Source: a virus
Lineage: Duplodnaviria; Caudoviricetes
Reading direction: 5' to 3' (one strand)
Virus record (IMG/VR): IMGVR_UViG_3300029305_003192
Length of the DNA: 64,000 nt
Within the stretch, counting starts at the first letter, position 1; every line of letters begins with the position of its first letter. A program made the position numbers and the translations under genes. Below, in pieces: positions 1,624 to 63,099 of this stretch. The notes under the pieces were generated by a model. The model was not told the DNA's origin and did not search any database. It saw only the letters and a program-made list of their open reading frames with translations.

Positions 1624-1628
1624 TACTA

Positions 1629-2168
1629 TTATAAACGAGTTTCTATCATAAGCTGTATGCTATATGTACTATTACCAGGATGAACCAGTATGTCAACTGG
1701 ACGATGGTCTGGGTCGGCTTCTTTACCTTTATACAGATTAGCATTTATGATAAGGAGTCTTTCGAACTTACTCAGATCAACTCTAGTATCATTCTTCATA
1801 CGGTTGACGTACTCAATGACCGCTCTCGAGCCGAAATGTAGAACCGTATCAACATATGCGTCTCTACCATCACGGTAATCATCATAATCAATTTCTCGAC
1901 CAGAAGCTTTAGCTTTGCTATCAACCCTGCGATTATGATCGATGATTGCAGTCAGATGATGTAGTAAATATACGAGCACTGCATGTGAGTTGATATTTTC
2001 AGGATTACCTATAAATTCTGGAAGACAAATGTCCGTACCTTCGGATATATCTGAGCTATTAACGAAGAAGTCGGAATAGCTATAGATATCTTTCGTGATG
2101 ATTCTATGCTTAATAGCATCATCATTATCAGTATCTGATGAAATAGTAAATCTTATATCGTCTGTCAT
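1629..2168 (-). CDS. Hypothetical protein
   Basis: 179 aa ORF, start overlaps the stop of the RNAP gene. Confidence 0.7.
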   Translation of the reverse strand: MTDDIRFTISSDTDNDDAIKHRIITKDIYSYSDFFVNSSDISEGTDICLPEFIGNPENINSHAVLVYLLHHLTAIIDHNRRVDSKAKASGREIDYDDYRDGRDAYVDTVLHFGSRAVIEYVNRMKNDTRVDLSKFERLLIINANLYKGKEADPDHRPVDILVHPGNSTYSIQLMIETRL

Positions 2169-5436: not shown

Positions 5437-5970
5437 TTACAAGACACATCCTCTCTTATTACACTCAAAGATATTTCTGACTGCGATATCAAAGATATCA
5501 AACAACTGCTGTTCATCGAATTCTGGAGGCTCGATTGTGATTAGCGTATTATTCGCATCCATCATATATGATGGTAGCTCACTAAGTATCATATGCTGAA
5601 ATTCTTCCACCAGTATATCAATAGCGTATGAACGGCATCGGTCATTGAACGATACTAGATCATATATTGGTATTTGTACCTCTGTAATCTTGGTACTATC
5701 TGACAAGGAATTGCCTTCAGCAACCATTAATCGTATAACGTTGAGTTCAACAATGTCGTTGCGGTAAGAACCCATAAACACTGTCATTCTGGAAATGACT
5801 TCGTTACTTAAGAGCGATTCTGTTGTCAGATTAACTTGTATCGTCGTAATTATGCTCGTACTATGATTATCAGTAATCGTTTCAATTGGAACGATTGTCA
5901 TATTGGCTCTAGCTTTCGGTATAAACGTGTAGTTATATTTGATACACTTGATGTTAGTTACATTTGACAT
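5437..5970 (-). CDS. Hypothetical protein, paralog array member
   Basis: IPIYDLVSF...YAIDILVEEFQHMILSELP; start chosen by RBS. Confidence 0.7.
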   Translation of the reverse strand: MSNVTNIKCIKYNYTFIPKARANMTIVPIETITDNHSTSIITTIQVNLTTESLLSNEVISRMTVFMGSYRNDIVELNVIRLMVAEGNSLSDSTKITEVQIPIYDLVSFNDRCRSYAIDILVEEFQHMILSELPSYMMDANNTLITIEPPEFDEQQLFDIFDIAVRNIFECNKRGCVL

Positions 5971-5993
5971 AAGCATTCTCCTTTGATTTAATA

Positions 5994-6563
5994 TTAGTGG
6001 GCAACGGATACCGCAGATGCAATAGCCTCGCGTAACTGAGTGGTTGTAGTAATTTGCTCTCCCAGTGTCAGAGGTGCACTACCAATTGTTAAAACGCACC
6101 TCTCAACCGCTTTAACCATATTACCATTACCCGTAACTACAAACGGTAATTGGAATGTGACTATATCAGCAAGTTCCTCGGCGAGTATTTGCTTCGCATG
6201 CTGCATCATACGACCTCCAGAACGCATCAGATTAATGAGCGGATAGGCCGATTCATGTATCAGATAACAATCGTCCGGTCTTGGTAATGGGCGTTCATCG
6301 ACGTTAATTTTATCATATATCTGCAAGTATACATCTAGGTTACCACTACCTTTCCCAGGTGTTGCTAACCATACTTCCATATATTTGATCGGGTTTCCGT
6401 CCAGATAAATGACAAGGTTGACTAATCTCTGAGTATGATTCAAATCCTTATTATAGCGGGCCTCTTCTTCAGAGATGGCATATAAAGCCATCTCTACACT
6501 AGACTGAGGAGTCAATAAATTTCCCACATCAATACAGTTGATTTTTCTTATAGGCGATGCCAT
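5994..6563 (-). CDS. Hypothetical protein, paralog array member
   Basis: YPLINLMRS...QILAEELADIVTFQLPFVV. Confidence 0.7.
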   Translation of the reverse strand: MASPIRKINCIDVGNLLTPQSSVEMALYAISEEEARYNKDLNHTQRLVNLVIYLDGNPIKYMEVWLATPGKGSGNLDVYLQIYDKINVDERPLPRPDDCYLIHESAYPLINLMRSGGRMMQHAKQILAEELADIVTFQLPFVVTGNGNMVKAVERCVLTIGSAPLTLGEQITTTTQLREAIASAVSVAH

Positions 6564-11686: not shown

Positions 11687-12886
11687 TTAAAGACTGGATG
11701 TAAGGAAGTCTGGAAGTTCTTCAACTTCTTCATTTCCTACATTGTTTGCAGAACCCAGAATTTTGTCAACCTGTGGGTTCTTTGCATATGAAGCAAATGC
11801 CTTTGCATTATCAGCAATGCTGTAGCTTCTTTCCTTAATGGAATCCTCATATGCATTGACTCTCTCGATACAACGATTGAGTCTGTCGTATGGCATACTC
11901 TGACCTGATACCAACATACCAAACTTAGCAGTTGGCTGGTCAGTGATTCCATAGTTTACAAAGATTTCGAACGGCTCACCGAGAGCATTGAAGAGTTCGG
12001 AATAGTCTGCCTTCTTAACTGGGTCGTCGATATTATCATCGACTTCGAGGCAGATGCCGAAATACTTCGAAAGCTTGTCTCTCTGTGGGTTTACTACAGA
12101 TGTCTTTGCAAGACGAGTTGTAATAATCTTCTGAATACCATTATCAGAGACCTCACTCATCTTGATACCTTCTGCAGAGAATGCTGTAATCATACCCTTA
12201 CAGGAAATGATTGTGAGCATATTACGCTCATCAATCATACCATACTTTGTCATGATTGCATAATCGCCGCGAACTGTCTTAACGGCTCCTACGATATCTG
12301 CCGCTACCATGGTGTAAGATTCCTCAATATTATACTCAGTATACTTCTCGAGGTCGAATACCATGTATGGAATGTTCTTGCTCTTGTTGATAAGTTCAAC
12401 TTCAGAGAAGAACTGAATAGCATTCTGCTGGCTATTGATAGACTCGGAGAGTCTTGGAAGGATACCAATCAGAATGATATTTTTACTAGGGTACTTGCTG
12501 GAAAGCTGGAATGCGATAGTTGGTGCAATACCAGAACCAGTACCGCCAGCGGTGGATGCAATCACGAAGATTACATCCTTATCGCTTACAAAGTCAACGA
12601 ATTCGGGACCACTCATAAGCTTCTGAGACTGGTCCCATTCGCTATAGAGCTTCTTAGCGATTTCTCTGTTACGACCAGCACCTCTACCAAGAGATGCTGA
12701 GTCTTCGATGATGTAGCTTCTTACACCCTGAGGAACCACGGTATTGTCCAGGTCCCTTGCGGATGAGTTAATAAGAATGGTTTCTACACCATTCTTGTGA
12801 AGTTCGACGCCGGCCTGACCGCCGCCGTTACCAATACAGATTGCACCGACTTTAAGTGCAACCTGATTAATTCTCTCCGTTGTCAT
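11687..12886 (-). CDS. Tubulin/FtsZ-family GTPase (PhuZ/TubZ-like)
   Basis: IGNGGGQAG, INSSARDL, GRGAGRN, signature AGGTGSG, T7-loop-like GMIDERN. Confidence 0.9.
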   Translation of the reverse strand: MTTERINQVALKVGAICIGNGGGQAGVELHKNGVETILINSSARDLDNTVVPQGVRSYIIEDSASLGRGAGRNREIAKKLYSEWDQSQKLMSGPEFVDFVSDKDVIFVIASTAGGTGSGIAPTIAFQLSSKYPSKNIILIGILPRLSESINSQQNAIQFFSEVELINKSKNIPYMVFDLEKYTEYNIEESYTMVAADIVGAVKTVRGDYAIMTKYGMIDERNMLTIISCKGMITAFSAEGIKMSEVSDNGIQKIITTRLAKTSVVNPQRDKLSKYFGICLEVDDNIDDPVKKADYSELFNALGEPFEIFVNYGITDQPTAKFGMLVSGQSMPYDRLNRCIERVNAYEDSIKERSYSIADNAKAFASYAKNPQVDKILGSANNVGNEEVEELPDFLTSSL

Positions 12887-28905: not shown

Positions 28906-28938
28906 TATGGGCAAGACCACATTATGGTCTTGCCCATA
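28906..28938. terminator. Intergenic hairpin
   Basis: TATGGGCAAGACCA...TGGTCTTGCCCATA. Confidence 0.7.
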
Positions 28939-33416: not shown

Positions 33417-35498
33417 ATGATTACTAAAGATTTAGTCAATATTGGTAATGCCAGAATTACTGGTAAAGTGTTTGCCTCTAAATTTATTGGTACCTTCAAC
33501 GGTACAGCGGATTCCGCTGCTGCACTTACTACGAATGCGGGTACGGCAACGAAACCAGTCTATTTTTCTAATGGTAAACCAGTTGCGACAACTTATGCTT
33601 TACAGCTCATGACAGCAGCCTCAGCAAGTGCTGCCGGTGCGGCTGGTCTTGTACCTTCAGCTGGAGCAGGAGCTAATAAAAAGTTTCTCAGGGGTGATGC
33701 TACATGGGCATCTATCGCAGGTAATGCTTATGCTACATGCACTACAGCGGCAGCTACTGCTGCTAAAGTAGCGACGATTTCTGGTAGTGTAAATTGGGAA
33801 CTTGTTACAGGCGCACAGGTAACTGTATTCTTCAGTTATACTAACAGTGCACAGAACCCGACCCTTAACGTCAATGGCACCGGTGCAAAACCCATCAAAT
33901 TAGGTTCAACCACCATTGCCACAACCCATCTGTCATATGCTGCGTATGCTAACCGTGCTATCAACTTTATCTACGATGGTAGCGCATATCAGTTTATTGG
34001 TTGGTCTACGGATACTAACACAACATATTCAGCAGCTACGTCTACAGCGGCTGGTCTTATGAGTGCCGCAGATAAAAGTAAGCTTGATGGTATTCAGGCA
34101 TCTGCAGATGCTGTATCATTCACACAATCACTTACCAGTGGTACTAAAATAGGTTCAATCAGTATTAATGGTGGCCCTACTGACATTTTTGCACCGACTA
34201 CAAAGCTTATTGCAGGTGCATCTGCTACTGCTACTGCAAATGCGGCGGCTTCTAACGGAAGTGCTTTTCTCAACGTTATTGAGAATGGTACTGTTAGGAG
34301 TAGTCATAAGATTGTAGGTAGTGGTGGTACGACCGTAACTACAGATGCTAATGGCGTAATCACTATTAAGTCAACCGATAATAATACCACATACACTCTC
34401 AGCAGTTTTGGTATTACTGCCACTGCGGCTGAGCTTAACATTCTTGATGGTGTTACTGTAACTGCAGCAAAGATTAACTACCTGACAGATGTTACATCCA
34501 ATATCCAGGCACAGCTTAATGGCAAGGCTGCATCATCACATGGCACTCATGTAACATATGCGACAGCAGTTCCATTGGTTGCTGGTACAGCAGCAGTCGG
34601 TACAGCAGCGAATGTTGCAAGAGGTGACCACGTTCATCCGGCACAGACTACTATTAGTGGTAATGCTGGCAGTGCAACTAAACTTGCTACCGCAAGAACT
34701 ATTGATGGTGTAAGCTTTAACGGTTCCGCAGCGATTACGCACTTCGGTACATGTGATACAGCGGCCGGAACTGCCGCAAAGACTGTAGCACTGACGGGAT
34801 TCTCATTAGTAACCGGTGCTAGGGTATTTGTAAAGTTCACATATGCTAATACGGCAGCTAATCCAACGCTGAATGTTAATTCTACCGGAGCCAAGGCTAT
34901 TATATATAGAGGCTCAGCTATCAGTGCGGCATATCTTAGAGCAAACGGTACTTATGAATTCCTGTATGATGGTACTAACTGGAATTTTGTTGGTGATTTA
35001 AACGTGGATACTAACACCACGTATACAAATGCATCTCTCGGCCAGGGATTCGGTACATGTGATACAGCGGCCGGAACTGCCGCAAAGACTGTAGCACTGA
35101 CAAACTATGCACTTACTACTGGTGGTATAGTTTCCGTAAAATTCACATATGCTGTACCCGCAAATGCCACGATGAATATTAACAGTAAGGGTGCGAAGTC
35201 GATTTTTTATAAGGGTGTGTCAATAACCGCAGGAGTCATTAATGCGGGGGACATCGCAACCTTCATATATGATGGTACTCAATATCATCTGATTTCGCTC
35301 GACAGTGGGGGCAGTGGTTCATCTTCCGGTGATTATATACCAACTACTGGTGGTACTGTAACCGGCAATGTTCAACAGTCAGGTGCTACTACTGACTACA
35401 CGACTTATAAATTCAGAAATATTGCCGTAGGTACATCTGCTACACCAACTTCAAATGCTACTTATGGTGTATCTGGATCTATCTATATTTATATCTAA
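33417..35498 (+). CDS. Ala/Thr-rich tail fibre protein with three internal repeats
   Basis: Three TC.TAA.TAAK...TG..V.V.F.Y.N...PTLNVN.TGAK.I...F.YDG units; ATKLATARTI motif. Confidence 0.8.
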   Translation: MITKDLVNIGNARITGKVFASKFIGTFNGTADSAAALTTNAGTATKPVYFSNGKPVATTYALQLMTAASASAAGAAGLVPSAGAGANKKFLRGDATWASIAGNAYATCTTAAATAAKVATISGSVNWELVTGAQVTVFFSYTNSAQNPTLNVNGTGAKPIKLGSTTIATTHLSYAAYANRAINFIYDGSAYQFIGWSTDTNTTYSAATSTAAGLMSAADKSKLDGIQASADAVSFTQSLTSGTKIGSISINGGPTDIFAPTTKLIAGASATATANAAASNGSAFLNVIENGTVRSSHKIVGSGGTTVTTDANGVITIKSTDNNTTYTLSSFGITATAAELNILDGVTVTAAKINYLTDVTSNIQAQLNGKAASSHGTHVTYATAVPLVAGTAAVGTAANVARGDHVHPAQTTISGNAGSATKLATARTIDGVSFNGSAAITHFGTCDTAAGTAAKTVALTGFSLVTGARVFVKFTYANTAANPTLNVNSTGAKAIIYRGSAISAAYLRANGTYEFLYDGTNWNFVGDLNVDTNTTYTNASLGQGFGTCDTAAGTAAKTVALTNYALTTGGIVSVKFTYAVPANATMNINSKGAKSIFYKGVSITAGVINAGDIATFIYDGTQYHLISLDSGGSGSSSGDYIPTTGGTVTGNVQQSGATTDYTTYKFRNIAVGTSATPTSNATYGVSGSIYIYI
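34743..35101 (+). repeat. Perfect 53-nt direct repeat (34743-34795 and 35049-35101)
   Basis: TTCGGTACATGTGATACAGCGGCCGGAACTGCCGCAAAGACTGTAGCACTGAC occurs twice. Confidence 0.9.
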
Positions 35499-35557: not shown

Positions 35558-36412
35558 ATGGCTTGTGGAGGAGGGTCTTCATCTTCCGGTTGTACCGGTG
35601 CTTGTTCTTCTGATTGCTACTCATGTACCGGGTCATGTTTCGGATGTGTAGGAACGTGTGAGAAAGGTTGTCAAGGCGGATGTGGTGGTACATCATGTAC
35701 GGGATGTACTGGATCTTGTTCGGGTACATGTAATAACACATCCAGTGGTTCTTCAGGATGTTCAGGCTGTACGGGATGTACTGGATGCTCAACGTCATGT
35801 GCAACCGGTTGCGCTTCATATACTTCGTGCTCATGTTCGGGATGTTCCGGTACATGCAGTGGAACTGCATCTGGCAGTACGGCTACACCTACCAGTTGCT
35901 CTGGTACCTGCACCACCACATGCTATTCTGCATGTACTGGTGGTTGTGGCACCACTAATACCGGGGGCGTATTATTTAAGATAAATAAAAACGGATCATG
36001 GTCTACTACAACATCAGGTCTTTGTGCAAACTGCACGGCATCGTGTTCCAGCGGGTGTACCGGTTGTTCTGGCGCATGTTTAGGCTGTACCAATACATGC
36101 AGTTCTGGCTGTACCGCAACATGCGGGGGTTATTGTAGTTCTGCATGTGGTAGATCGTGTATTGCTACTTCAGGAGGCACGTCTAGTGAAGGTTGTACAA
36201 CATCGTCATGTATGAGCGCATGTACTGGTTGTGCTGGAAATTGTACCGGAGGATGTAGCAATAACTGCATCAAAGGATGTTCGAGCACATGTACCGGTGG
36301 ACTTGGCGGATCCAATCTGGCCGCATCGTTGAAAGTTAATAAGGGCGGTACGTGGACCAAGGCATCTGCTATCAGTATAAATCGTAATGGCACATGGTCC
36401 AATAAATCATAA
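35558..36412 (+). CDS. Cys-x-x-x repeat protein inside the tail operon
   Basis: (Cxxx)n of C/S/G/T; KINKNGSW, KVNKGGTW and INRNGTW motifs; AAGGAGG RBS. Confidence 0.85.
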   Translation: MACGGGSSSSGCTGACSSDCYSCTGSCFGCVGTCEKGCQGGCGGTSCTGCTGSCSGTCNNTSSGSSGCSGCTGCTGCSTSCATGCASYTSCSCSGCSGTCSGTASGSTATPTSCSGTCTTTCYSACTGGCGTTNTGGVLFKINKNGSWSTTTSGLCANCTASCSSGCTGCSGACLGCTNTCSSGCTATCGGYCSSACGRSCIATSGGTSSEGCTTSSCMSACTGCAGNCTGGCSNNCIKGCSSTCTGGLGGSNLAASLKVNKGGTWTKASAISINRNGTWSNKS

Positions 36413-36429: not shown

Positions 36430-37248
36430 ATGCTTTCATATAATGTATCATTCAAGGGGTTTGACCCTATCGACGTAATTACCGTTTTTAATAACGGCGT
36501 AGAAGTGAGCGTAAGCACACAGGATACTATCGCAACTGCGGAAAGAAATTGTCTCGAATTTCATTTTGCTCAGGGAGTCGATAAACTCAAAGTTCTCGAA
36601 ATTTCCGAGACCGATTCAGCTCTCTCAGAAATCACTATTTCCACACCATCTGGTGAAATATATGTGCATCTCAACTACAACATCATGACAAAGTGTGCAT
36701 ATGAAAACTATAATGGTGAAGGATATAGATGGATTCTTAAGCTTCACCAGCTTAATGAAACTGATATCCAGCTTAGAAAGATTGCTGGTAAGGCTGTGAA
36801 TGACAGAGATGTCCTGACACTTGATGAGTATAAGGTATATAAGGTCGATGAGTCCAAGACACTCCTCGCACTCTGGCTTGCAGCTAATCCGATCCTCTTT
36901 ACAGACGGTAAGTATTATTCCGTTACTGAAGAGAAGCAGGCACTTCTTAACAGTAACCTTGCTTCCTACGAAAGAGCTACTGCTGCTGAAGTTCAGTACC
37001 CACTTAAGTGGAACGCGTCTGGAGAGGAATGTGTTGCATGGGAATATGAAAAACTTCTCGAACTTTCTCTTGCAATTGCGGCATATGTTGCTGAACGCGT
37101 GAGTGTACAGCAGGCATATGAAATTGCGGTATATGCTGCTGAAGATAAGATGAGTATCGATAACATGGTTCTCGATTATGATCTCGAAACAACAGCTACA
37201 GAAGTAGATACCGAAACAGAGACTGAAACTTCATCCGAAGCTGAATAA
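36430..37248 (+). CDS. Tail-associated protein, DUF4376-like
   Basis: YYSVTEEKQ...LKWNASGEECVAWEYE. Confidence 0.65.
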   Translation: MLSYNVSFKGFDPIDVITVFNNGVEVSVSTQDTIATAERNCLEFHFAQGVDKLKVLEISETDSALSEITISTPSGEIYVHLNYNIMTKCAYENYNGEGYRWILKLHQLNETDIQLRKIAGKAVNDRDVLTLDEYKVYKVDESKTLLALWLAANPILFTDGKYYSVTEEKQALLNSNLASYERATAAEVQYPLKWNASGEECVAWEYEKLLELSLAIAAYVAERVSVQQAYEIAVYAAEDKMSIDNMVLDYDLETTATEVDTETETETSSEAE

Positions 37249-37256: not shown

Positions 37257-37290
37257 ATTAACCCTACCGGGACAATCCGGTAGGGTTAAT
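37257..37290. terminator. Intergenic hairpin
   Basis: ATTAACCCTACCGG...CCGGTAGGGTTAAT. Confidence 0.7.
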
Positions 37291-37312: not shown

Positions 37313-38590
37313 ATGACAAGAAAAGAATTCGCAGAGTCCATCATGATTGGACATAATATCGGCAACGCTCTTGAGTGTATCGAGCCATACCGATATAATA
37401 ACACTGTTAAATCATTCAACGTTGAGCGAGAGGTTAATGATATCAATGGATATCATGACTTCAGAATATCAGTGCAGCTGGATGATGATAAGTATGAACT
37501 TCATTATTCATATGAAGAAATATGGTCAAATACGCCCATTACAACTGAATATTTGGCAAAGCTTAAAAGTTTTGGAATACAGGCGGTACGTCTCCCGTTT
37601 AATCTGATAGGCCATATTATAGATCCTACTAATCATACGGTTGATCCTCTTTGGCTTAAGAGAATTCGTGAGGTTGTCGAAATGTGTATTGATAATGGTC
37701 TTAAGTGTATACTGAATATGCACACTGACTATGCAGCAGCATGTAAGACACCTTCACTTTTATCAATTATTGATACTACCAGGGACCCATATACTGATAC
37801 AATGGGACGGTTAATGTCCGTTTGGGCACAATTGACAGAGTATCTCAATGATATATCGGTAGAAGATTTAGCATTTGAACTCACTAACGAGTTTCAGCTG
37901 ACCGATATCGAAAATAGGACGGATGCTGATACTCTGGCATCATATGCTTCAAATCTTTATAGATATCTTTTCACATCTATTCGTAATGTAGGTGGTAATG
38001 CTGCTGAAAGATTTCTACTTATTGGCGGTTATCGTAATGATATATGGTATTCGATATCTACATTCATAGATTTAATTAATACTGAGCTGGACGATAAGTG
38101 CTTGCTCACAACCTGTTATTATACTCCATGGCAATTTACCGTCGGCGACAGAGTGGAATGGGAGTACTCTGGTGACACTAAGGTCGAAATGGATAAACAC
38201 TATCAGTACATTCTCGATACCATCAACTCTACCGAAATACCATTCGTTATTACTGAATATGGTGCGGGATTACCATCCAAGAACCATTTCGATTCGGTGA
38301 ATTACACATATCATAACATGAAATGGGCATATGATAATAGTATACCAGCGTTCGTATGGGACCCTGGTTATATTCTACATCGCAACACTCTCGAATACGG
38401 TATCCCGTTCTGGGAAGATATGGTACGTTCGGTTATTAACGGTACTGATTATGATATTACATCGGCATATGATACGTATAAAGATAGTATCACATTCGAC
38501 AGATGTACTGAACAGACGCTTTTGACATATATGGATATATCACAGCTTGATAATCCTGCAAATATTAAGAAATATGCATCACAGTTCTAA
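37313..38590 (+). CDS. Glycoside hydrolase family 5 (cellulase-like), paralog 1
   Basis: GHNIGNALE, AVRLP, NMHTD, FELTNE (acid/base), YYTPW, ITEYG (nucleophile), WD. Confidence 0.85.
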   Translation: MTRKEFAESIMIGHNIGNALECIEPYRYNNTVKSFNVEREVNDINGYHDFRISVQLDDDKYELHYSYEEIWSNTPITTEYLAKLKSFGIQAVRLPFNLIGHIIDPTNHTVDPLWLKRIREVVEMCIDNGLKCILNMHTDYAAACKTPSLLSIIDTTRDPYTDTMGRLMSVWAQLTEYLNDISVEDLAFELTNEFQLTDIENRTDADTLASYASNLYRYLFTSIRNVGGNAAERFLLIGGYRNDIWYSISTFIDLINTELDDKCLLTTCYYTPWQFTVGDRVEWEYSGDTKVEMDKHYQYILDTINSTEIPFVITEYGAGLPSKNHFDSVNYTYHNMKWAYDNSIPAFVWDPGYILHRNTLEYGIPFWEDMVRSVINGTDYDITSAYDTYKDSITFDRCTEQTLLTYMDISQLDNPANIKKYASQF

Positions 38591-38607
38591 TAGGAGGCAT
38601 GATACTA

Positions 38608-39909
38608 ATGACTAGACGAGAATTTGCAGAAAGTATTCGTATTGGCCACAATCTTGGCAATGCACTTGAATGCATTGAGCCTGTGTGTAATAACGGGCTT
38701 GCCGTTACTGTTGATAGAGAAGTGACCGATATTAACGGATACCATGACCACAGAATCATCATTAAATATCCTGATGGCTCATATAGCTATTACTACAGCT
38801 TCGAAGAAATTTGGTCGAATGTACCAATTACTCAGGAATGGTTTAATATCTTAAAATCTATCGGCGTGCAGGCTATTCGTGTTCCTATGAATCTTTCGGG
38901 GCATCTTATAGATGGCATTAATCATACTATTGACCCCCTCTGGCTTAAAAGAATCCGTGAAGTAATCAACATGTGTATCTCTGCAGGATTAAAATGCGTC
39001 CTGACACTTCATACTGATTTCGTCATTATGTACAGAGTGGGAAGTTATCGTTCACTCATTGATACTACAAGAGACCCGTCCACGGATGGTGTTGGTAGAC
39101 TGATGAGTGCATGGAAGCAGATGGCTGAATATGTCAATGATATATCAGTAGAGGACCTGGCATTTGAACTTACTAACGAATTCAGATTATATGATATCGA
39201 TGGAAATGAACTTGCCACATATAACGAGGATGCTACTGATGAAGAAAAGGCAACGTATGCTGCCAGACTGAATAAGCATTTATTCGATGCTATCCGTAGC
39301 GTCGGTGGTAATGCTGCTGAAAGATTCTTACTTATTGGCGGATATGGTAATAACCCGGATACATGCCCCGATATTCTCATCAACTCAATCAAAAATGATA
39401 TGGATGATAAGTGTATCATAACAGCGTGTTATTATACACCGTGGGAGTTTACCGTATCAAGCATTAATACTACCTGGGAATATTGTAAGCGTATGAGGGA
39501 TATTATGGATAATCATTTCAATCGTCTGCTTGCAGTAAGTAATGATAACGACATCCCATTGGTAATTACCGAGTTCGGTATTGGTTGTGATGAGGGTGCT
39601 ATGGCTAAGAAGGAGAAGTTCTCGTTCTGCAGTTATATCTTCACAGTAATGAATATGATGAAGGAGCACAATGTTCCTGCATTTATTTGGGATCCTGGAT
39701 ATATTCTCAGAAGGGATAGTATGACCTTCGGATTACCATTCTACCCATCATTGGTTGAGAGTGTTGCTAATGGTACACCTTTCGATCCATACAATGCATA
39801 TCTGGAGACAATTGACAATTATAATATCGAAAGATTAACATATCGTGACGAATTAACCCTCGAGGACATTCAGGCTCTCGATAATCTCCAAAACTCCGAG
39901 GAGGTGTAA
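38608..39909 (+). CDS. Glycoside hydrolase family 5, paralog 2
   Basis: GHNLGNALE, AIRVP, FELTNE, ITEFG, WD; start aligned to the paralogs. Confidence 0.85.
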   Translation: MTRREFAESIRIGHNLGNALECIEPVCNNGLAVTVDREVTDINGYHDHRIIIKYPDGSYSYYYSFEEIWSNVPITQEWFNILKSIGVQAIRVPMNLSGHLIDGINHTIDPLWLKRIREVINMCISAGLKCVLTLHTDFVIMYRVGSYRSLIDTTRDPSTDGVGRLMSAWKQMAEYVNDISVEDLAFELTNEFRLYDIDGNELATYNEDATDEEKATYAARLNKHLFDAIRSVGGNAAERFLLIGGYGNNPDTCPDILINSIKNDMDDKCIITACYYTPWEFTVSSINTTWEYCKRMRDIMDNHFNRLLAVSNDNDIPLVITEFGIGCDEGAMAKKEKFSFCSYIFTVMNMMKEHNVPAFIWDPGYILRRDSMTFGLPFYPSLVESVANGTPFDPYNAYLETIDNYNIERLTYRDELTLEDIQALDNLQNSEEV

Positions 39910-39912
39910 TGT

Positions 39913-41193
39913 ATGACCAGGGAACAATTCGCAGAGAGAATCCGCATAGGGCATAACCTTGGTAATGCCCTTGAATGCATCGAACCTGTATATGATTCGG
40001 CCGCTACTATAAAGATCGACAGAGCAGTTACCGACAAGAATGGCTATCATGACCACCGTATAATCATTCAGTATCCGGATGGTACATATAGCTATTTCTA
40101 CAATTTTGACGAGATATGGTCAAATGCACCAGTAACCGAGGATTTCTTTAAAATCCTGGCAGACATCGGGGTTCAGTTAGTGAGAATTCCAATGAATCTA
40201 TCTGGTCACATAATCGATGATAATAACACCGTGGATCCTTTATGGCTTAAGAAGATACGGTCCGTCGTCGAGATGTGTATTAATAACGATATGGTAGCTA
40301 ATCTTTGTCTGCATACAGACTTCGTAAAATATTACAGAGAAACTCAGTTCGAATCGCTATTTGATCTTCAAAATGATCCAAATGATGATGCTGTCGGAGT
40401 TCTTATGTCAGTATGGAAGCAGATGGCTGAATATGTCAATGATATCCCAGTAGACGTATTGTGCTTCGAGCTGACCAATGAATTCCGAATTCATGATATG
40501 GATGATGATTTAAGCCATCCAAATGGTAGAGTATTAACTTTCCAGGAGAAGGCTATGTATGCTGCACGTTTAAATAAGTACCTGTTTGATGCAGTACGCA
40601 GCGTCGGTGGAAATGCGGCTAAAAGATTCTTATTAATTGAAAACTATGCTAACTGTGCTGATATGGATAAGCAGACATATATAGAGAGTTTCAAGAACGA
40701 TTTTGATTCCAGATGTCTTATGACAGCATGTTATTATTGCCCGTGGGAATTCACGGTGTGCGATAGGCACAACACGTGGGAGTTAAATTCTGCAATAAAA
40801 CCTATCATGGAACGAGAAATGAATAGACTCAAATATATCCGTGAGGAATCAGGAGTCCCACTCGTCATTACAGAATATGGCGTCGGTTGCGATAACTCTG
40901 GTATGGAGCATAAAGACAAATTCTCAATATGCAGGTACTTGTATACCGTAATGAAGATGATGAAAAATGAAGGATTTCCTGCATTTATTTGGGATCCTGG
41001 ATATATCATCAAGCGTATCGATTATCATTACGGTATCCCGTTCTGGAGAGAAATGCTGAGGGGTATATACTTCGGAGAACCTTTCGATCTCTACGAATCG
41101 TTTACAGAACACTCCGAGCATTTACTCTTTACACGACATTATTATGGCGTCTCCAGAACTGCTGAAGATATCCGAGCACTCGACGATATATAA
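39913..41193 (+). CDS. Glycoside hydrolase family 5, paralog 3
   Basis: GHNLGNALE, VRIP, FELTNE, ITEYG, WD. Confidence 0.85.
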   Translation: MTREQFAERIRIGHNLGNALECIEPVYDSAATIKIDRAVTDKNGYHDHRIIIQYPDGTYSYFYNFDEIWSNAPVTEDFFKILADIGVQLVRIPMNLSGHIIDDNNTVDPLWLKKIRSVVEMCINNDMVANLCLHTDFVKYYRETQFESLFDLQNDPNDDAVGVLMSVWKQMAEYVNDIPVDVLCFELTNEFRIHDMDDDLSHPNGRVLTFQEKAMYAARLNKYLFDAVRSVGGNAAKRFLLIENYANCADMDKQTYIESFKNDFDSRCLMTACYYCPWEFTVCDRHNTWELNSAIKPIMEREMNRLKYIREESGVPLVITEYGVGCDNSGMEHKDKFSICRYLYTVMKMMKNEGFPAFIWDPGYIIKRIDYHYGIPFWREMLRGIYFGEPFDLYESFTEHSEHLLFTRHYYGVSRTAEDIRALDDI

Positions 41194-48860: not shown

Positions 48861-50651
48861 TTATTCTTCAGGGAAAACGAAGTACATGTACTTGTCGTTC
48901 TGGTCATATTTAACAAGCACTTCGCCACCAAGCATATCAGTCGAGCATCTTATATACTCTGAACCGGACCATCTATATGATGCATTTGTCGTCGTATCAA
49001 GATATATCTTACCTTTGCCAGGTTCGGCGAATATTGCCGTATCGGATATAAATACGAGTTTGCCGTCGCCATCTACAGCCATCTCACCTTCAACTACATC
49101 ATCAACGAACGATGGTAAGTGCTTTGTAAGAATAATACCATTTGCATCTATTTGAGCATATCCTTTCTTAAGCATATTCTCCGTAAACTGTGATGAATAC
49201 ACTGTAAGAGACGACGGTGTATTATCATCAATAAATGCCGCGGATGTTTCGGTTCTCGCGATTACACTAAGAATACCCGATTCATCTACCTGTAATGTGG
49301 TACCATCTGGACGAATAGAGCCAAGTTCAGATATCGTTGCGGGATGCTTATGTGCATTGATGATATCGTAATATGAAGGTGAATAAGCGGACTCGAATCG
49401 ACCGTTTTCAACTTTAACATGCGTGATGTTGATCGTGAAATTAAATCCCGAGATATTTGTAAACTGAATGATATCATTGGTAGAATGATAATCGTTCTCA
49501 ATAGTAAATGAATATTCAGTCCAGATTGAATCTTTGAGCTCGAATTCTATATCATTATTACAAATACGAAGTCGCATCTTCATAGGTGCAGGTGCGCCGT
49601 CGGTCGGGATAGCCTTGGCAATAAATGAAATAGTTGCATGATGGTTAATAGATGACAGTAAGCTACCTTGCAACGTACATCCATTCGCAACGTATACACT
49701 GCCATACGAATCCGTATATACGTCACCTATATAATCACCATCACATGATACAACGTTACCTGATTCACAGAACCAGTTTCTAGCCACCTTATCCGGGTAC
49801 GTCATATATCTGAAATCTGAATTATATACCAGATTAATTCCACCGAGCTCTCCAAAATAGTATGCTAATGTATTCGCTGATACGTATGGTACGTCATTTG
49901 CAAAGCTCGAAAGTGTGAATGAGCTCATCGTTGCATTGATATTGTTAATGATGGTATCCATCTCGGCAAAGCTCGGGATACTATTCTTAATATTATCAAT
50001 TTCTCTCAATAAATCTGGGGTTGCGAGACCCGATTTTTCATATGATACATTAGGTATGTCTTCATATCTTACATACTTTACATCGTTTGTGTAGTGAGAT
50101 AAGTTCTTGGGTATATCGGTAAGGGTTATATATTTAGCATCATTTTCAAAAGCAGATACTTTCTTTGGAAGATTAGCTGTTAATAAGTACTGCTCGTGGG
50201 TATGATCCTTTGGAGCTCTCGTAGCAATTGCAACATCGAGTGCCTTCTTATATACGATATTTTCAGCATCTATACCCCTGAGCTTCTTGTATAACTCAGG
50301 AGTCATCATACCATTCTCGGTTTCGGATACTATTGGGAAGAGTATGTCTGCCCAATCGAGTGGATCTGGCTGAGTATCATCATTAGATCTTTCCCATATG
50401 AGACTCTTGTTGGAAACAACAGGCTTCCACATGATAAAGTTACGAAGATTCTCATTAAGATATTGCATGAGCTGGTCTACTGTTACTCGAAGGGTAAGGT
50501 CGTTCTCAGTAGCAACGATGAGAGAGTCTCCGAAGTTTAAGGTAGGAGCTTTCTCAATACCTATCTGCTCCAGCTCTAATATTTCAGTAAATTTTAGCTT
50601 CGTTATAGCTTCAACTACATCCGAAGGTAAATTTACAGGAGTGGTATTCAT
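48861..50651 (-). CDS. Tail fibre/baseplate-associated protein with CBM-like domain
   Basis: NGMMTPE, LPKKVSAFENDAKY repeats, NLVYNSDF...VKVENG, LPSFVDDVVE...GKIYLD...YRWSGSEY. Confidence 0.7.
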   Translation of the reverse strand: MNTTPVNLPSDVVEAITKLKFTEILELEQIGIEKAPTLNFGDSLIVATENDLTLRVTVDQLMQYLNENLRNFIMWKPVVSNKSLIWERSNDDTQPDPLDWADILFPIVSETENGMMTPELYKKLRGIDAENIVYKKALDVAIATRAPKDHTHEQYLLTANLPKKVSAFENDAKYITLTDIPKNLSHYTNDVKYVRYEDIPNVSYEKSGLATPDLLREIDNIKNSIPSFAEMDTIINNINATMSSFTLSSFANDVPYVSANTLAYYFGELGGINLVYNSDFRYMTYPDKVARNWFCESGNVVSCDGDYIGDVYTDSYGSVYVANGCTLQGSLLSSINHHATISFIAKAIPTDGAPAPMKMRLRICNNDIEFELKDSIWTEYSFTIENDYHSTNDIIQFTNISGFNFTINITHVKVENGRFESAYSPSYYDIINAHKHPATISELGSIRPDGTTLQVDESGILSVIARTETSAAFIDDNTPSSLTVYSSQFTENMLKKGYAQIDANGIILTKHLPSFVDDVVEGEMAVDGDGKLVFISDTAIFAEPGKGKIYLDTTTNASYRWSGSEYIRCSTDMLGGEVLVKYDQNDKYMYFVFPEE

Positions 50652-52155: not shown

Positions 52156-54117
52156 TTATAAATTACGAACCGTACCGTCGGCACCTACGAACTCCCAGTC
52201 ACGTGCAACCTTACCATCAGGATTACATATAACCGGTTTACCTATGTCAAGACATGCCTGTTTATATGCATTGTATTCTGGTGTGTCAACTGCAACTTCG
52301 TATGCTTCCACATCCTTAAGATGTTCTGGTCCGAACGATTCGAGATCCTTAAGCATATCAAGCTCATCATGGTCGATAATTTCAAGAGCCCATTCATCTG
52401 GTACCCAAATCTTAAATCTGAGGAACGGCGCATACTTACGGAAGCCTTTATTCCAGAAGTATGCATTAGCGAGCGCTCTCGCCTTATGCATAATACAGAT
52501 ATATGTCGCACGCTTATCAACCGTACCAAATACCTGATAGTTATATGCAGAGCACCAGCTACAACCGGAAGCAATTGGACAGTTAAAGCATTCGTCAGTG
52601 GACTGCGAACGTCTCGTTACACATCGCATACACTTAATGATATCCTTTTCCTTATCCGTTGGAAGGAGACCATCATATACGTTACCAATGATAACAGGTT
52701 CTCTTTCATCTCCAAGGGAGCTTTCCATATATCTGATACATGGATAAAGATCGCCCTTATAGTCGCAAGAGAGCATTGAACCGGTACCACCGCACCAGTT
52801 ATTATTTTCCTCTGGACTCATCGGACAGAAATTGGTATCCTCAAAGATAGAGAAATAGATCTTATCGAAGAGATCCTTCTCGATGATATAGTCAGCCAAC
52901 TGCTTCAGCTGATTATAGAGTATATTTGCATAATGAGCATCCCAGCCTTCTTCATATACGCAATTGAGGAAGATTTCCTCATAACCAAGAGCGATAAGGT
53001 TCTGAGTAGCCACAAATACTTTGTCGACATTACCTGGAGCGATTGTCATCTTACTTCCCATATGACCGTGGTGGAATTCCTTAAAGTGCTTAACACCAGC
53101 GATTGCGATATCGTAACTACCGCTACCGTCTGGGAAAATACGGCACGCGTCGTGGAGTTCCTTATTACCATCGATAGAGATGGAGAATGAGAGATGATAC
53201 TTATTCTTGGTGATATACTCCTGGAACTTCGGATCGAAGTAAAGTACACCATTAGAGCAGATAGAAATCATAAACTTATCTCTCCACGGGTGGTCGAGTT
53301 CAATCATTCTATCGTAAAGATAGTCAGTTACCTTGTCGATGAGGTCGATTTCGAGGAGTGGTTCACCACCAATAAATTCAACGATGAGTCCCTCACTGAT
53401 TTTTGTATTAACATAGTCATTTTCTCTATCATCTTCGAGAAGCATATCAATATATCTCTTAGCGATATCAAAAGACATACGGTGTGTCTGCTTGTTAATC
53501 TGATAACAGTTGTGTACACCAATATCGTTTGCAAGATATGTGTGGGTTGATGTACCGATATTATATACATCAATCATTCTTTGATTATATTTAATGGCTG
53601 AAACGCCTCTCCAGTTAAACTCGCCAGTATGTGTATCAAACATATACAGCAAACATCCTGGATTCTCGTCATCAGTCATATATTTTCTGAGTTCATCAGC
53701 CTCTACCCAGTGACCATAATCATCATCCTTACCCTTCATATAAACGGAGTGGTTTGGAGTAATCTGAAGGACAGTCTGGTCATCCATAACAATTGACATG
53801 GTTACGGCCTGACGCTGGAAGAGCTGTTCTACCTTGGCAGTTTCAAGTTCGCCAGTAGCTTCGTTAAATGCAATAATTTCATCGCCAACCTGAATATCTC
53901 TGATTGGCTTACTGGACTTATCTACCATTGTAATGTGAGTATTTCCACTCACACAGTAAGTACAACGAAGATTGCACGCGTCAGTTACCTGAAGCGTGCA
54001 AGTTCTTGTTAAACCGTCATGGTAGGAATCGTCCGCCGATGGTGCTCGGTCTCGACCATAAAGTCGTGCGACCTTATCCTGATAATTTTCAGTTATCTTG
54101 TACTTACGACGAAACAT
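52156..54117 (-). CDS. Radical SAM/SPASM peptide maturase, CXXX-repeat target class, intein-containing
   Basis: CNLRCTY[intein]CYQ, FIGGEPLL, SNG, SISIDG, GSY; SPASM WCGG...YPC...CxxCxxxxxCxxC...C. Confidence 0.9.
   Translation of the reverse strand: MFRRKYKITENYQDKVARLYGRDRAPSADDSYHDGLTRTCTLQVTDACNLRCTYCVSGNTHITMVDKSSKPIRDIQVGDEIIAFNEATGELETAKVEQLFQRQAVTMSIVMDDQTVLQITPNHSVYMKGKDDDYGHWVEADELRKYMTDDENPGCLLYMFDTHTGEFNWRGVSAIKYNQRMIDVYNIGTSTHTYLANDIGVHNCYQINKQTHRMSFDIAKRYIDMLLEDDRENDYVNTKISEGLIVEFIGGEPLLEIDLIDKVTDYLYDRMIELDHPWRDKFMISICSNGVLYFDPKFQEYITKNKYHLSFSISIDGNKELHDACRIFPDGSGSYDIAIAGVKHFKEFHHGHMGSKMTIAPGNVDKVFVATQNLIALGYEEIFLNCVYEEGWDAHYANILYNQLKQLADYIIEKDLFDKIYFSIFEDTNFCPMSPEENNNWCGGTGSMLSCDYKGDLYPCIRYMESSLGDEREPVIIGNVYDGLLPTDKEKDIIKCMRCVTRRSQSTDECFNCPIASGCSWCSAYNYQVFGTVDKRATYICIMHKARALANAYFWNKGFRKYAPFLRFKIWVPDEWALEIIDHDELDMLKDLESFGPEHLKDVEAYEVAVDTPEYNAYKQACLDIGKPVICNPDGKVARDWEFVGADGTVRNL
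53509..53955 (-). mobile_element. Mini-intein (149 aa, no homing endonuclease) in the rSAM gene
   Basis: Block A CVSGNTHI, block B TPNH, block F/G VYNIGT...YLANDIGVHN followed by Cys+1. Confidence 0.9.
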
Positions 54118-54155: not shown

Positions 54156-54803
54156 TTACACTGCATATGATACTGTTACCTTCTTAGTATCAAAATCAAG
54201 AGACCAGGAGCGTGTGTTGATAGGAGCGTCTGGTTCGTTTGTATCAAACCATACTCTCACGTATTCGCGGTCGATAATCTTGATATTATTCTGGTAAGCA
54301 TCCTCGACTTCATCATAGATTTTCTGGAGTTCCATGAAGGATGGGTTATCGATCGATGGAGCAATCTGAATTACTCTATCAATGATATCAGCAAGGGCTG
54401 TTCGCTCGATGGAAAGCTCTCTCTGCTTTTCGATGAATTCCGCATCCATATCAATATCAGTTTCAGTCGTCTGACGATTGTCATTACCATTATATGTGAT
54501 GGTAAGTACATGTGACGCGAAGTCGATGACCCAGTTAACAACCGCAGTTTCACCCCACTTTTCGATAGAAAGTGGACGTGCATACTTATCGGAAATTGCT
54601 GTCTTGTCATGGCTGTAGTCAGCTTCGAGCTTGCAAATTTCCTTAAAAATCTTCTGGAGGGTCTCGTTATTGAAGGATGTATCCTTAGAAATAAGACGGG
54701 CCACATCAGTGCATCTTCTGTCAATCATATCAGCACGTCTTTCGAGTGTAATATTTTCGTCTTCCTCGATAGTAATCTTGATCATTGTTTCATTCATATT
54801 CAT
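54156..54803 (-). CDS. CXXX-repeat modification system accessory protein, two tandem domains
   Basis: Two ~100-aa helical units ending NWVIDFASHVLTI and SWSLDFDTKKVTV; adjacent to the rSAM. Confidence 0.7.
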   Translation of the reverse strand: MNMNETMIKITIEEDENITLERRADMIDRRCTDVARLISKDTSFNNETLQKIFKEICKLEADYSHDKTAISDKYARPLSIEKWGETAVVNWVIDFASHVLTITYNGNDNRQTTETDIDMDAEFIEKQRELSIERTALADIIDRVIQIAPSIDNPSFMELQKIYDEVEDAYQNNIKIIDREYVRVWFDTNEPDAPINTRSWSLDFDTKKVTVSYAV

Positions 54804-60099: not shown

Positions 60100-61233
60100 T
60101 CAATTCTTTTTATTACCTTTATCTCCGTTAGTATTTGCGGTATTATGATTATTTCCATTAGGCGAGTATGAATTATTAGCACATGCTGCCGAACAGGTTT
60201 TATTACAACCTCCAGCACATCCTCCCTTACAGGAACCAGTACAACCTGATCCACAACTTGTACTACATCCACTACACTGTCCAGTACATGCAGATCCACA
60301 AGCACGTGTGCATATAGAGGAGCATCCATCACTACACCCAGTAGGGGTTGATGGGCCGCCAGGATTATTTGATGATGATCTACATGTTGATGAGCACGAT
60401 GTCGTACAATTACCGTTACATGATGGAGCCTGGTTAACTGTTGAACTCGTAGCAGTATCTTTACAGCCACCAGTACATGTATCTGTGCATCCTGTACTAG
60501 CACCGCCTGTAGCACTACCAGTACATCCAGCGCATGTACTCGTACACGATTCTTCGCACGAATCATGTTTCTTGGTAGCGAATCCCGTACACGATTTCCA
60601 ACAACCGCCATCACATTTACCGTTACATCCGCCAGTACAACCTGTACCACATCCATTGGTACATTTATTTTCACACTTACCCGTGCACGTGCCACTACAT
60701 CCTTCACACGTACCACCACATCCATTACATGTTGTAGTACAAGCTCCACATGAAGTACATGCTACATTACAGGCAGTTGTACAAGCACCACAACCAGTAC
60801 AACCATTGGTACATTCCTCACTGCAACCGTTACAGGTATTGATACATGTCATCATACATAGACCGGAACATGCAGATCTACATGAGATGGCACCGTTTCT
60901 GTCAGTATTAAGTGGGTTAGAAGTTGCAAGCATATCCTCGCTCTGAAGAAGCTTTATAAATGCGAGAAGTTCATTATATTCGAATGAATCAGGGATAGGG
61001 TCGGCCACTTCAACGAGGATAAGGTCTCCCTTATCACAAATATGAAGTAATGGGTCAATCGTTTTAGCACCCTGCTCCTGCGTAATAACATCATGAGTTC
61101 TTGGCACTACACTGAAATCATAAGCATCTTTAGAGAATTCGGTCATACGGCCATATCCGCCGCGACGCATCATCTCTTGTTTAATTAACGCTTTAAGTTC
61201 TTTCGCCTGGTCAGGCGTTACATGAAGAATCAT
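60100..61233 (-). CDS. Cys-repeat protein with ~105-aa N-terminal leader-like domain
   Basis: ATG 61233 after AAGGAGG; EMMRR...CRSACSGLC then Cxxx tract. Confidence 0.85.
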   Translation of the reverse strand: MILHVTPDQAKELKALIKQEMMRRGGYGRMTEFSKDAYDFSVVPRTHDVITQEQGAKTIDPLLHICDKGDLILVEVADPIPDSFEYNELLAFIKLLQSEDMLATSNPLNTDRNGAISCRSACSGLCMMTCINTCNGCSEECTNGCTGCGACTTACNVACTSCGACTTTCNGCGGTCEGCSGTCTGKCENKCTNGCGTGCTGGCNGKCDGGCWKSCTGFATKKHDSCEESCTSTCAGCTGSATGGASTGCTDTCTGGCKDTATSSTVNQAPSCNGNCTTSCSSTCRSSSNNPGGPSTPTGCSDGCSSICTRACGSACTGQCSGCSTSCGSGCTGSCKGGCAGGCNKTCSAACANNSYSPNGNNHNTANTNGDKGNKKN

Positions 61234-61260
61234 TATAATCCTCCTTCTTATAAAATTAGA

Positions 61261-61288
61261 ACCCAATGCAATTATAATTGCATTGGGT
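61261..61288. terminator. Perfect palindrome/hairpin upstream of the Cys-repeat operon
   Basis: ACCCAATGCAATTATAATTGCATTGGGT. Confidence 0.65.
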
Positions 61289-61317: not shown

Positions 61318-63099
61318 CTATCCACTAACTTCCGGTGTCGGTGTTATTGATGGAGTACCCATGATAGTTTCATCGGGTTCAGCAGTAATAGGATTGTCCT
61401 TAATATTCTCACCCCAAATAGCATGGATTGGAACCCAAGCTCCATCATAATAAAATTTGAGGACAAACTGAGGTGTCTGAATCCACATCTTCTCAGTATC
61501 GGCTGGAGGTGTTGCTCCGAACACCCAGTTAGCTGCAGGGGCAGCACCGATTGGACGCCACTTCTTATGTGTGGTATCATAATAGTTGAGAGTTGCGGGA
61601 TGATACACGTTTTCAGTATCCTTATTAAGCCATGGTCTTTCCAGGTCATGGATAGACATCCATACATCTTTGGTATAATAAGCCAATGCCGGTGGAATCA
61701 ATCTCTTCCATGTCCCACCGGGATACTTATTAGTTGAACCTGGTGGCGATGGTGGCACTACAATGGCCTCTTCGTAATGTGGGTCATCTACACCATCGGA
61801 TGTTCCCATACAGTGGTACAATTTGAAATTTTGTGTATATGAATTCTTATGATTGGGGTCAGCGATTGGACCGGCGGCTGGTACTTTATACCAAAGCACC
61901 TGATTCTCCACCGGAGGTTCTACGCTCTGCACGAATCCGCCGCCACCTCCGACTGCAACGAACTCATTTACGAATTCGCCCTTATCATCATTATAGACAA
62001 TAGTCTGCTGATTTTCGATTAAGCATTTCCCCTGAGCATCATACGCAATATTTACTGGAACCTCATTGAGGAAATTTGCATTGTCAAATTCAGTCCACAT
62101 GTCATAATAGCTAGGCATCCACTGAGTCGCATAAACACCCCATTCGAGCTTAGGAAGAGCAAAATGAGCAAGCGTGAGTCTGTTTACACCAAATGCGATC
62201 TTAACATATTTAGCGTTAAGATACTCATTGGTAACAGTAACAGATATTCTCTCCCAAGTTTCGGAATTTGGCTGGATTATTTCTTCGTATTTGGAGCCAT
62301 TGATTCTCTGATGATTTGCATCTTCGAATGTGATCTGGATAAATACTGATCCATCCTTCGTGGTATTAGATACAAAAGTGGATGCAGTATATGTCATTCC
62401 ATATATTGCTTCTGTACAATATGCATTGGACTGAGCAACTACTACTGATTCAGTAAGACTTATCAGTTTAGACGCGTCCATCTTAAACGCTGGTCTATCA
62501 CACAGTGTCTTAGATGTATCTCTAGTGGCATAGGCTGCGTGAGTTGTACTCCATGCATCAAAACCACGCACAAGACCTGTATTATCGGCAAGATTAATAT
62601 TACCAATAACAAGATTATCGATGATAGACTTAAGATGTCTACCCATATTAGCAGATAACGCAGCATCCGCTCTTTCAGACTTCAGATGGTCGATAACATC
62701 TACCTTCTGCACACCAAGGTCGATATGCTTCCAGCTATAGTCCTTAGAACCATCTGCAAGGTCAAGATCTCTGTAATAAAGGTGTGCACCAATGTACAGT
62801 CTCTGCCAGTGGTGATTACCTTCATAGGAAACCTGTAAGAAAATTGGAGATACCGAGGTTGTCTTGAAGAGAGTCTGCCAAGGCATCTCAATCTCAACAT
62901 TATCGGGTCCAATATCATAATAGAAGAATATAGTATATTTACCAGGGATAGTAATCTGGAAAAGGTTCTCAGGCATATCCTGAGTCTCACCGATAAGATA
63001 ACATCCTGGGTCAACATTCTCCTGATATGTATTACCAAGAATTCTGCCGACGGCAAGGTCTATCTCGTGACCGGTGTATAAGCTTTTATAAGCACCCAT
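61318..63099 (-). CDS. Tail fibre/baseplate protein with CBM-like domain
   Basis: YKSLYTGHEID N-terminus, DHLKS..DAALSANMG..LK repeat, YTAS...WERISVT...PKLEWG, PP...W...W motifs. Confidence 0.7.
   Translation of the reverse strand: MGAYKSLYTGHEIDLAVGRILGNTYQENVDPGCYLIGETQDMPENLFQITIPGKYTIFFYYDIGPDNVEIEMPWQTLFKTTSVSPIFLQVSYEGNHHWQRLYIGAHLYYRDLDLADGSKDYSWKHIDLGVQKVDVIDHLKSERADAALSANMGRHLKSIIDNLVIGNINLADNTGLVRGFDAWSTTHAAYATRDTSKTLCDRPAFKMDASKLISLTESVVVAQSNAYCTEAIYGMTYTASTFVSNTTKDGSVFIQITFEDANHQRINGSKYEEIIQPNSETWERISVTVTNEYLNAKYVKIAFGVNRLTLAHFALPKLEWGVYATQWMPSYYDMWTEFDNANFLNEVPVNIAYDAQGKCLIENQQTIVYNDDKGEFVNEFVAVGGGGGFVQSVEPPVENQVLWYKVPAAGPIADPNHKNSYTQNFKLYHCMGTSDGVDDPHYEEAIVVPPSPPGSTNKYPGGTWKRLIPPALAYYTKDVWMSIHDLERPWLNKDTENVYHPATLNYYDTTHKKWRPIGAAPAANWVFGATPPADTEKMWIQTPQFVLKFYYDGAWVPIHAIWGENIKDNPITAEPDETIMGTPSITPTPEVSG

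Follow-up and report, generated by a model that had tools for sequence, protein, structure and literature searches.

A Cys-repeat protein in a phage tail-fibre operon: a candidate distal fibre component, possibly modified in trans by a radical SAM enzyme

In the 64,000-nucleotide stretch of DNA from a large gut or rumen phage analysed here (the window), a tail-fibre operon contains a gene for a 284-aa Cys-repeat protein. The reading that we favor, with a probability of roughly one half, is that this protein is a distal tail-fibre component which combines a hairpin anchor with Cys tracts, the tracts being most likely modified in trans by a radical SAM enzyme. From its sequence features, the protein is probably part of a host-recognition fibre, and it is possibly cross-linked by the phage's own radical SAM enzyme. 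The gene and its conservation, the operon, the repeats, the gene triplet, and the presence and family of the enzyme are shown by the sequences. That the protein is in the virion, touches the fibre and is modified, and by what chemistry, is what we infer in the following.

Results

The Cys-repeat gene and its product

The gene and its parts are listed below.

35558..36412 (+): Cys-repeat protein of 284 aa; an ORF with orthologues at the equivalent position in contigs L145, L146/L149 and L147
35542..35549 (+): Shine-Dalgarno sequence AAAGGAGG, read directly, 8 nt 5' of the ATG of the 284-aa ORF
35564..35947 (+): Cys tract I, residues 3-130, from the gap histogram; its Cys columns are invariant in the orthologues
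35972..36010 (+): hairpin repeat 1, residues 139-151, separating the two Cys tracts; retained in L145 and L146
36023..36292 (+): Cys tract II, residues 156-245, from the gap histogram and the orthologue alignment
36326..36409 (+): hairpin repeats 2 and 3, residues 257-284, tandem 14-residue units at the C terminus

An earlier note on this DNA had described the product as a Cys polymer, and this was borne out: the protein contains 51 Cys residues (18%), and of its 50 Cys-to-Cys gaps, 41 measure either 4 residues (30 gaps) or 3 residues (11 gaps). Gly, Ser, Thr and Ala together account for 63% of the protein. Asp and Glu account for 1.1%, versus 4.6 to 9% in the Cys proteins that adjoin the radical SAM gene. 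The motifs KINKNGSW, KVNKGGTW and INRNGTW quoted in the earlier note are all present and lie in Cys-free stretches, as FKINKNGSW at residues 140-148, LKVNKGGTW at 258-266 and INRNGTW at 274-280.

No signal peptide was found in the 284-aa protein, and it has no leader or recognition domain before the core of the kind that marks leader-dependent RiPP precursors; the N terminus varies among the orthologues. The MACGGG start had been likened to that of a 968-aa Cys protein of the same phage. The two N termini are indeed similar, but since the orthologues start differently the likeness appears to be compositional, and MACGGG as a shared leader was ruled out. Single-sequence AF2 modelling of the 284-aa protein gave no fold and was uninformative (pLDDT 38); in that low-confidence model, a short strand segment lies on each side of the turn of hairpin repeat 1. 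Codon use of the gene is similar to that of the phage's other Cys genes. No DNA-level similarity was found between the 284-aa gene and the genes of the radical SAM cluster, which ruled out a recent duplication from that cluster.

Orthologues in metagenome contigs

Direct searches with the 284-aa protein returned almost nothing. There was no match in phage records at the DNA or protein level, none in IMG/VR and none in a search of 5.8 billion proteins, and the exact sequence is absent from the cluster collection. A library of 1.84 billion representative proteins gave one compositional match, P0001 (E = 4.5e-4). This single match is a bacterial-type CXXX protein of 193 aa with a Tat-like signal, whereas the 284-aa protein carries no signal. 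An identical 284-aa protein is encoded on at least 24 metagenome contigs, one of which is a 239.6-kb JGI contig.

The direct searches missed orthologues that are present in metagenome assemblies, so that the apparent orphan status of the protein is due in part to the handling of low-complexity sequence. Orthologues were found only via contigs carrying homologues of the 272-aa neighbour of the Cys gene. Contigs in which the 272-aa homologue is 93%, 73% and 70% identical carry in the same slot a Cys-repeat gene of 293, 246 and 289 aa, and the relatives' Cys-repeat proteins are 66%, 47% and 39% identical to the 284-aa protein. The gene order in the relatives is LamG protein, ~208-aa gene, fibre, Cys gene and 272-aa homologue, followed by GH5 genes where the contig extends far enough.

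Cys accounts for 37 of the 62 invariant columns in the orthologue alignment, and the C-terminal hairpins for another 7 (N261, G264, W266, N275, G278, T279 and W280, invariant in four orthologues). The Cys tracts differ between orthologues by many indels that keep the reading frame. No other part of the protein is as well conserved as the hairpin repeats; in all four orthologues the two C-terminal hairpins keep a spacing of exactly 14 residues, and the internal hairpin, retained in L145 and L146, is relocated to the N terminus in L147.

These data bear on whether the ORF might be spurious, arising from a low-complexity, codon-biased stretch. Other frames of the DNA at 35558-36412 are likewise open for 66 to 114 codons, which speaks for such an artefact, but the 284-aa ORF has a Shine-Dalgarno sequence graded strong, gene callers place a gene at the slot in all contigs examined, and the Cys columns and hairpins are conserved at 39-66% identity with indels in frame. 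The orthologue alignment practically refutes a spurious ORF, to which we give next to no credence; the 284-aa ORF is a real gene.

Two further observations concern the surroundings of the Cys gene in other genomes. None of the IMG/VR homologues of the fibre (L081-L139) has an adjoining Cys gene, and a candidate Cys gene beside the fibre homologue in L126 proved to be an antisense artefact. Strong terminator-like hairpins that are absent from the window flank the Cys gene at L146:5104-5226 and at L147:4951-5029 and 5900-6000, and the Cys gene may therefore be separately regulated or attenuated in these relatives.

The fibre operon

The operon that contains the Cys gene is delimited and composed as follows.

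28906..28938 (+): strong intrinsic terminator, a 14-bp stem with 7 GC pairs and then a T-run; it closes the preceding unit and is the 5' limit of the fibre operon
33417..35498 (+): tail fibre of 693 aa, with PHROG matches
36430..37248 (+): 272-aa partner gene, with a beta-rich N domain and a helical DUF4376/DUF2977-type C domain
37257..37290 (+): strong intrinsic terminator with a 15-bp stem; the 3' limit of the operon

Between the two terminators are genes for a 641-aa fibre, a LamG protein, a 211-aa product, the 693-aa fibre, the Cys protein and the 272-aa protein. No protease or exporter gene was found in the operon, the neighbours of the Cys gene being fibres, the LamG protein, the gene that we call tail-fibre-assembly-like (Tfa-like) below, and GH5 enzymes. 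The Shine-Dalgarno sequence, the terminator-bounded operon and the fibre genes on both sides suggest that the 284-aa gene is expressed with the fibres. Three tandem GH5 (cellulase-family) paralogues lie 3' of the operon at 37313-41193 (+), and L146 and L147 retain one to three of them.

Fibre-like genes fill ~37 kb of the window, which also encodes an RNA polymerase beta-like subunit, topoisomerase II, a UvsX-like recombinase and an endolysin. The record that includes the window spans 141 kb, with its completeness rated at 59%. The polymerase subunit, at 2168-4576 (-), and a weak PhuZ/tubulin-like match at 11687-12886 (-), taken with the 239.6-kb contig, suggest a jumbo phage that encodes a transcription apparatus of its own.

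Hairpin repeats and a conserved gene triplet

The earlier note placed the Cys gene between a fibre with a GxIY ending and a DUF4376-like gene. The fibre ends as quoted, and the DUF4376 match of the 272-aa protein is weak (E = 0.0078; 17.1 bits, under the Pfam cut-off of 25). The C-terminal ~45 residues of the 693-aa fibre (nt 35367-35495) form a conserved module, GGTxTG...DYT...RN...GxIY, which can be aligned to fibres in L145-L147 and L151 as well as to stand-alone proteins of 84 and 86 aa in L148 and L150; in L151 the module is the end of a 414-aa fibre.

L148, L150 and L151 are small temperate-type phages whose 272-aa homologues are 43-48% identical to that of the window, N domain included. 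The gene upstream of the homologue encodes in these phages a Cys-poor protein of 445, 315 and 245 aa, respectively, with three tandem N-terminal hairpin repeats followed by beta-rich repeats. The beta-rich bodies are of surface-adhesin type, with a faint Flg_new match. In the 284-aa protein the hairpin unit is 14 residues long, with the consensus hydrophobic-K-[V/I]-N-x-x-G-T-W-[K/S], and the repeats of L148 and L150 have the same 14-residue period and consensus. The slot and the three repeats are thus like those of the 284-aa protein, while the arrangement differs: in L148, L150 and L151 the repeats are N-terminal and tandem and the body consists of Cys-poor beta repeats, whereas in the 284-aa protein the repeats are internal and C-terminal and the body is made of Cys tracts.

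Altogether, seven phage contigs, which fall into two very different kinds, carry a triplet of fibre C-module (GGTxTG...DYT...RN...GxI[Y/H]), three-hairpin protein and 272-aa homologue. Each of the seven hairpin proteins has three hairpins, at residues 139-151, 257-270 and 271-284 in the 284-aa protein; the copies in L151 were read by eye. The junction proposed in the earlier note, a GxIY-ending fibre followed by a K.nG.W module, is therefore recurrent. A loose hairpin pattern run over the six-frame ORFs of the retrieved loci (1.3 million residues) hit only the 284-aa orthologues and two positional analogues, and the fibre-module pattern was found solely upstream of hairpin-repeat proteins; neither pattern occurred again in the window or the retrieved loci. 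The hairpin motifs are thus no product of chance. A search with the N-terminal repeats of L148 found two proteins only. PDB sequence searches with profiles of the fibre module and of the 272-aa family gave nothing meaningful.

The recurrent triplet indicates that the Cys protein belongs to the distal tail-fibre set. By gene slot and by its three repeats, the 284-aa protein falls into a class of hairpin-repeat distal fibre proteins that we define here from sequence features. The claim that the fibre junction is the best evidence for a virion role is in line with these results, the triplet being better evidence for such a role than the radical SAM cluster itself. Comparative evidence supports the proposed virion-fibre role well. 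A structure prediction that combined the fibre C-module, in triplicate, with the 272-aa protein and with residues 240-284 of the Cys protein speaks neither for nor against contact with the fibre, since a control with chain 2 replaced scored equally high.

The hairpins could instead bind a ligand on the host surface in the manner of cell-wall-binding repeats, with the 284-aa protein acting as an independent adhesin or as a released factor. Short G-x-W hairpin repeats presumably resemble cell-wall-binding repeats, and the strong conservation of the hairpins would fit such a role. However, no Pfam repeat family matched the hairpin repeats, the protein lacks a signal peptide, and the repeats always accompany the fibre C-module and the N domain of the 272-aa family. 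This constant co-occurrence argues for a phage-internal partner, and binding of a host ligand appears very improbable.

The Tfa-like downstream gene

More than 1000 homologues share the C domain of the 272-aa protein. Among 22 relatives, 9 match DUF4376 (best E = 1.1e-5) and 3 match DUF2977. The DUF4376/DUF2977-type C domain is the conserved domain of tail-fibre assembly proteins, which have a fibre-chaperone role (PMC7882524, PMC10579305). The N domain is common only to phages that also have hairpin-repeat proteins. From these features, the 272-aa protein appears to be Tfa-like and is a putative chaperone. It resembles the Tfa proteins U/TfaMu of phage Mu, the partner of the Campylobacter CJIE1 H-fibre and gp27 of Alteromonas phage V22 in its conserved C domain, in its gene position after the fibre genes and in having a lineage-specific N domain. 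It differs from them in that its DUF4376 match is under the cut-off and its N domain models as Hcp/tail-tube-like.

The AF2 model of the 272-aa protein (pLDDT 80) divides into a beta domain (residues 1-118) and a helical domain (residues 131-244). Structure comparison of this model matched the N domain to B. fragilis Hcp5 at a borderline level (Z 9.1, rmsd 4.2 over 98 residues), and many tube proteins match it at Z 6.5-8.7; the match lists contained no solved Tfa entry. An Hcp/tail-tube-like N domain is unusual for a fibre chaperone.

A further lineage combines Cys repeats, the 272-aa chaperone family and fibres. In the pig gut contigs L152 (at 334-3180) and L153, of 270 and 71 kb, a 942-948-aa protein has a precomputed match to PF27846 (CXXX target). 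Genes for a 578-aa fibre, a 200-aa DUF4376-type homologue of the 272-aa protein and a Peptidase_G2 appendage protein lie 3' of it.

The slot between a fibre gene and a Tfa-like gene is one where helper genes are common. The 284-aa protein could thus be a non-virion assembly factor, such as a scaffold or a chaperone-like client of the 272-aa protein, that acts while the 693-aa fibre folds and is then discarded. Nevertheless, a polymer with 51 retained Cys residues would be a costly helper, and the proteins in the same slot of L148, L150 and L151, with their adhesin-type repeats, look like end-products. We consider an assembly factor improbable.

The radical SAM locus

The second Cys locus of the phage contains the following genes.

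52156..54117 (-): radical SAM/SPASM maturase of the CXXX-repeat target family (TIGR04115), with a Hint-type intein; the candidate enzyme in trans
54156..54803 (-): 215-aa accessory protein, assigned by position only; a 215-aa gene is at the equivalent place in L149
54856..61266 (-): four large Cys-repeat proteins (271, 968, 333 and 388 aa), which adjoin the radical SAM gene and have phrog_6085 matches

The radical SAM protein scores 438.7 bits against TIGR04115 (cut-off, 350), and its gene is the single Radical_SAM match in the 141-kb record. It lies 15.7 kb from the 284-aa gene on the opposite strand, close to the 16 kb given in the earlier note. The intein occupies residues 50-205 of the protein and is retained in L149 (18272-20233) at an equal protein length of 653 aa, while the fibre-region proteins are only ~70% identical. 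No family match was found for the 215-aa accessory protein. L149 retains the unlinked Cys gene together with the intein-bearing radical SAM gene and its 215-aa accessory gene at the spacing seen in the window, and its flanking 265-aa gene stands where the window has the 271-aa Cys protein; the co-occurrence of unlinked Cys gene and enzyme is based on two genomes.

Radical SAM relatives are encoded in 115 stretches of IMG/VR, and nearly all of the 80 loci retained have an adjoining Cys-repeat ORF of 185-590 aa. In other annotated viral lineages these cassettes are mostly near tail or fibre genes: a fibre is directly upstream in L029, baseplate wedge genes are a few genes upstream in L002, L043 and L056, and tail or fibre neighbours are present in L003, L005, L009 and L055. 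The window phage shares with them the enzyme family, the type of Cys polymer and the tail-fibre neighbourhood. In the cassettes, however, the Cys protein adjoins the enzyme, whereas the 284-aa copy is detached, lies in another fibre operon and is joined to an anchor. A globular domain of ~140 aa (residues 1-143) in the 388-aa protein, encoded at 60100-61266 (-), is ~40% identical to Cys proteins in 73 viral radical SAM loci. It precedes the Cys tracts in two proteins of the window phage and is missing from the 284-, 271- and 333-aa proteins.

Other fibre-like genes lie near this locus. A 593-aa tail-like protein at 61318-63099 (-), beside the Cys cluster, ends in the repeats W-x-x-T...L-K-F-Y-Y-D-G-A-W. 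The C-terminal repeats of a 795-aa fibre (L029:5360-7747), just upstream of a Cys protein in a phage unrelated to that of the window, are similar, and tblastn joins the two proteins over ~50 residues, in 20 loci. In a 596-aa protein at 48861-50651 (-), the C-terminal ~85 residues match a PHROG labelled peptidase (residues 491-573). A self-cleaving fibre chaperone domain is a possible identity for this end; if so, another fibre would lie between the two Cys loci.

Modification in trans or an unmodified fibre protein

No NCBIfam CXXX-target model matched the 284-aa protein at E <= 0.01, and no precomputed Pfam match was listed for its identical copies. The target-model test discriminates poorly, since the four enzyme-adjacent Cys proteins fail it too; a 265-aa protein of L056 passes TIGR04114. 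The missing ~140-aa domain, the missing target-model match, the few acidic residues and the lack of DNA similarity to the cluster all count against modification in trans. The low content of acidic residues does so on the assumption that this enzyme, like PapB, requires an acidic acceptor.

The same protein could therefore be a fibre-associated structural protein that the radical SAM enzyme leaves unmodified, with Cys residues that bind metal ions, form disulfides after release or belong to a flexible small-residue spacer. In addition to the lack of a leader domain and of a target-model match and the few acidic residues, the distance of the enzyme and its location on the other strand are consistent with such a protein. 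Several results point the other way. The strict Cys spacing of 3-4 residues matches that of the enzyme-adjacent proteins and has been held across drifting orthologues; in L056, a leaderless pure Cys protein is directly beside the enzyme; and L149, the one relative examined, retains both loci. Disulfides would also be unstable in an anoxic reducing habitat. We regard an unmodified fibre protein as unlikely, though by no means negligible, and modification of the 284-aa protein in trans as plausible.

Discussion

The reading of the 284-aa protein as a distal fibre component modified in trans may be set out as follows. The three hairpins would serve as a fibre-type docking or oligomerisation element and would work with the C-module of the 693-aa fibre and with the Tfa-like 272-aa protein. 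The two Cys-x-x-x tracts would replace the adhesin-like beta-repeat body of the related phages. They would be modified post-translationally and in trans by the single CXXX-family radical SAM/SPASM enzyme encoded 15.7 kb away. By analogy with the nearest studied relatives of the enzyme, the modification may consist of thioether cross-links, and the product would be a rod or loop held together by covalent staples, able to persist in the anoxic and reducing gut.

Of the known systems, the CXXX-repeat radical SAM system (enzyme TIGR04115; targets TIGR04114/TIGR04117 and PF27846) offers the closest comparison. Its targets, like the 284-aa protein, have long runs with Cys at every fourth residue that are rich in Gly, Ser and Thr, and the genome of the window likewise has a TIGR04115 enzyme above the cut-off. 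The catalogued targets are mostly small and adjoin the enzyme, whereas the 284-aa protein is unlinked and 15.7 kb off; it is also without a signal or leader and carries fibre-type hairpin repeats. We found no paper on the chemistry of this system, none that links it to phages and none on a detached Cys polymer fused to a fibre anchor.

The nearest named radical SAM/SPASM family by score is that of PapB, whose substrate is PapA (freyrasin), although the phage enzyme reaches 171 bits against a cut-off of 340. PapB catalyses thioether macrocyclisation in a ranthipeptide system (PMC12373016). Both PapB and the phage enzyme are SPASM peptide maturases associated with Cys-x-x-x motifs. PapB joins Cys to Asp in CX3D. 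In the 284-aa protein, in contrast, a further Cys occupies position +4 and there are hardly any acidic residues, so that any acceptor must be a different one from that of PapB.

A more general proposal, which we put forward tentatively and with the odds against it, is that phages of the anoxic gut construct a portion of the host-recognition fibre out of a Cys polymer stapled by an enzyme. Such a polymer would be a swappable body on a conserved three-hairpin anchor, replacing an ordinary adhesin domain. It would depend for its maturation in trans on a radical SAM enzyme whose recognition element is the Cys-x-x-x repeat and not a leader.

What is new here is an unlinked Cys polymer in one chain with an anchor which in unrelated phages belongs to fibre-end proteins of the ordinary type, the flanking partner genes being the same. 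With this, a location "near fibre genes" becomes a defined architecture with a candidate docking piece and a piece that would be stapled. Although catalogued, the CXXX-repeat radical SAM system has gone unstudied. If the more general proposal is true, one enzyme would serve at least five structural substrates over two loci, and this would be the first RiPP-type chemistry on a virion protein. If the cross-linking is real, it would represent a new viral way to harden host-recognition gear where disulfides fail, and a natural case of repeat-directed, leader-independent peptide stapling.
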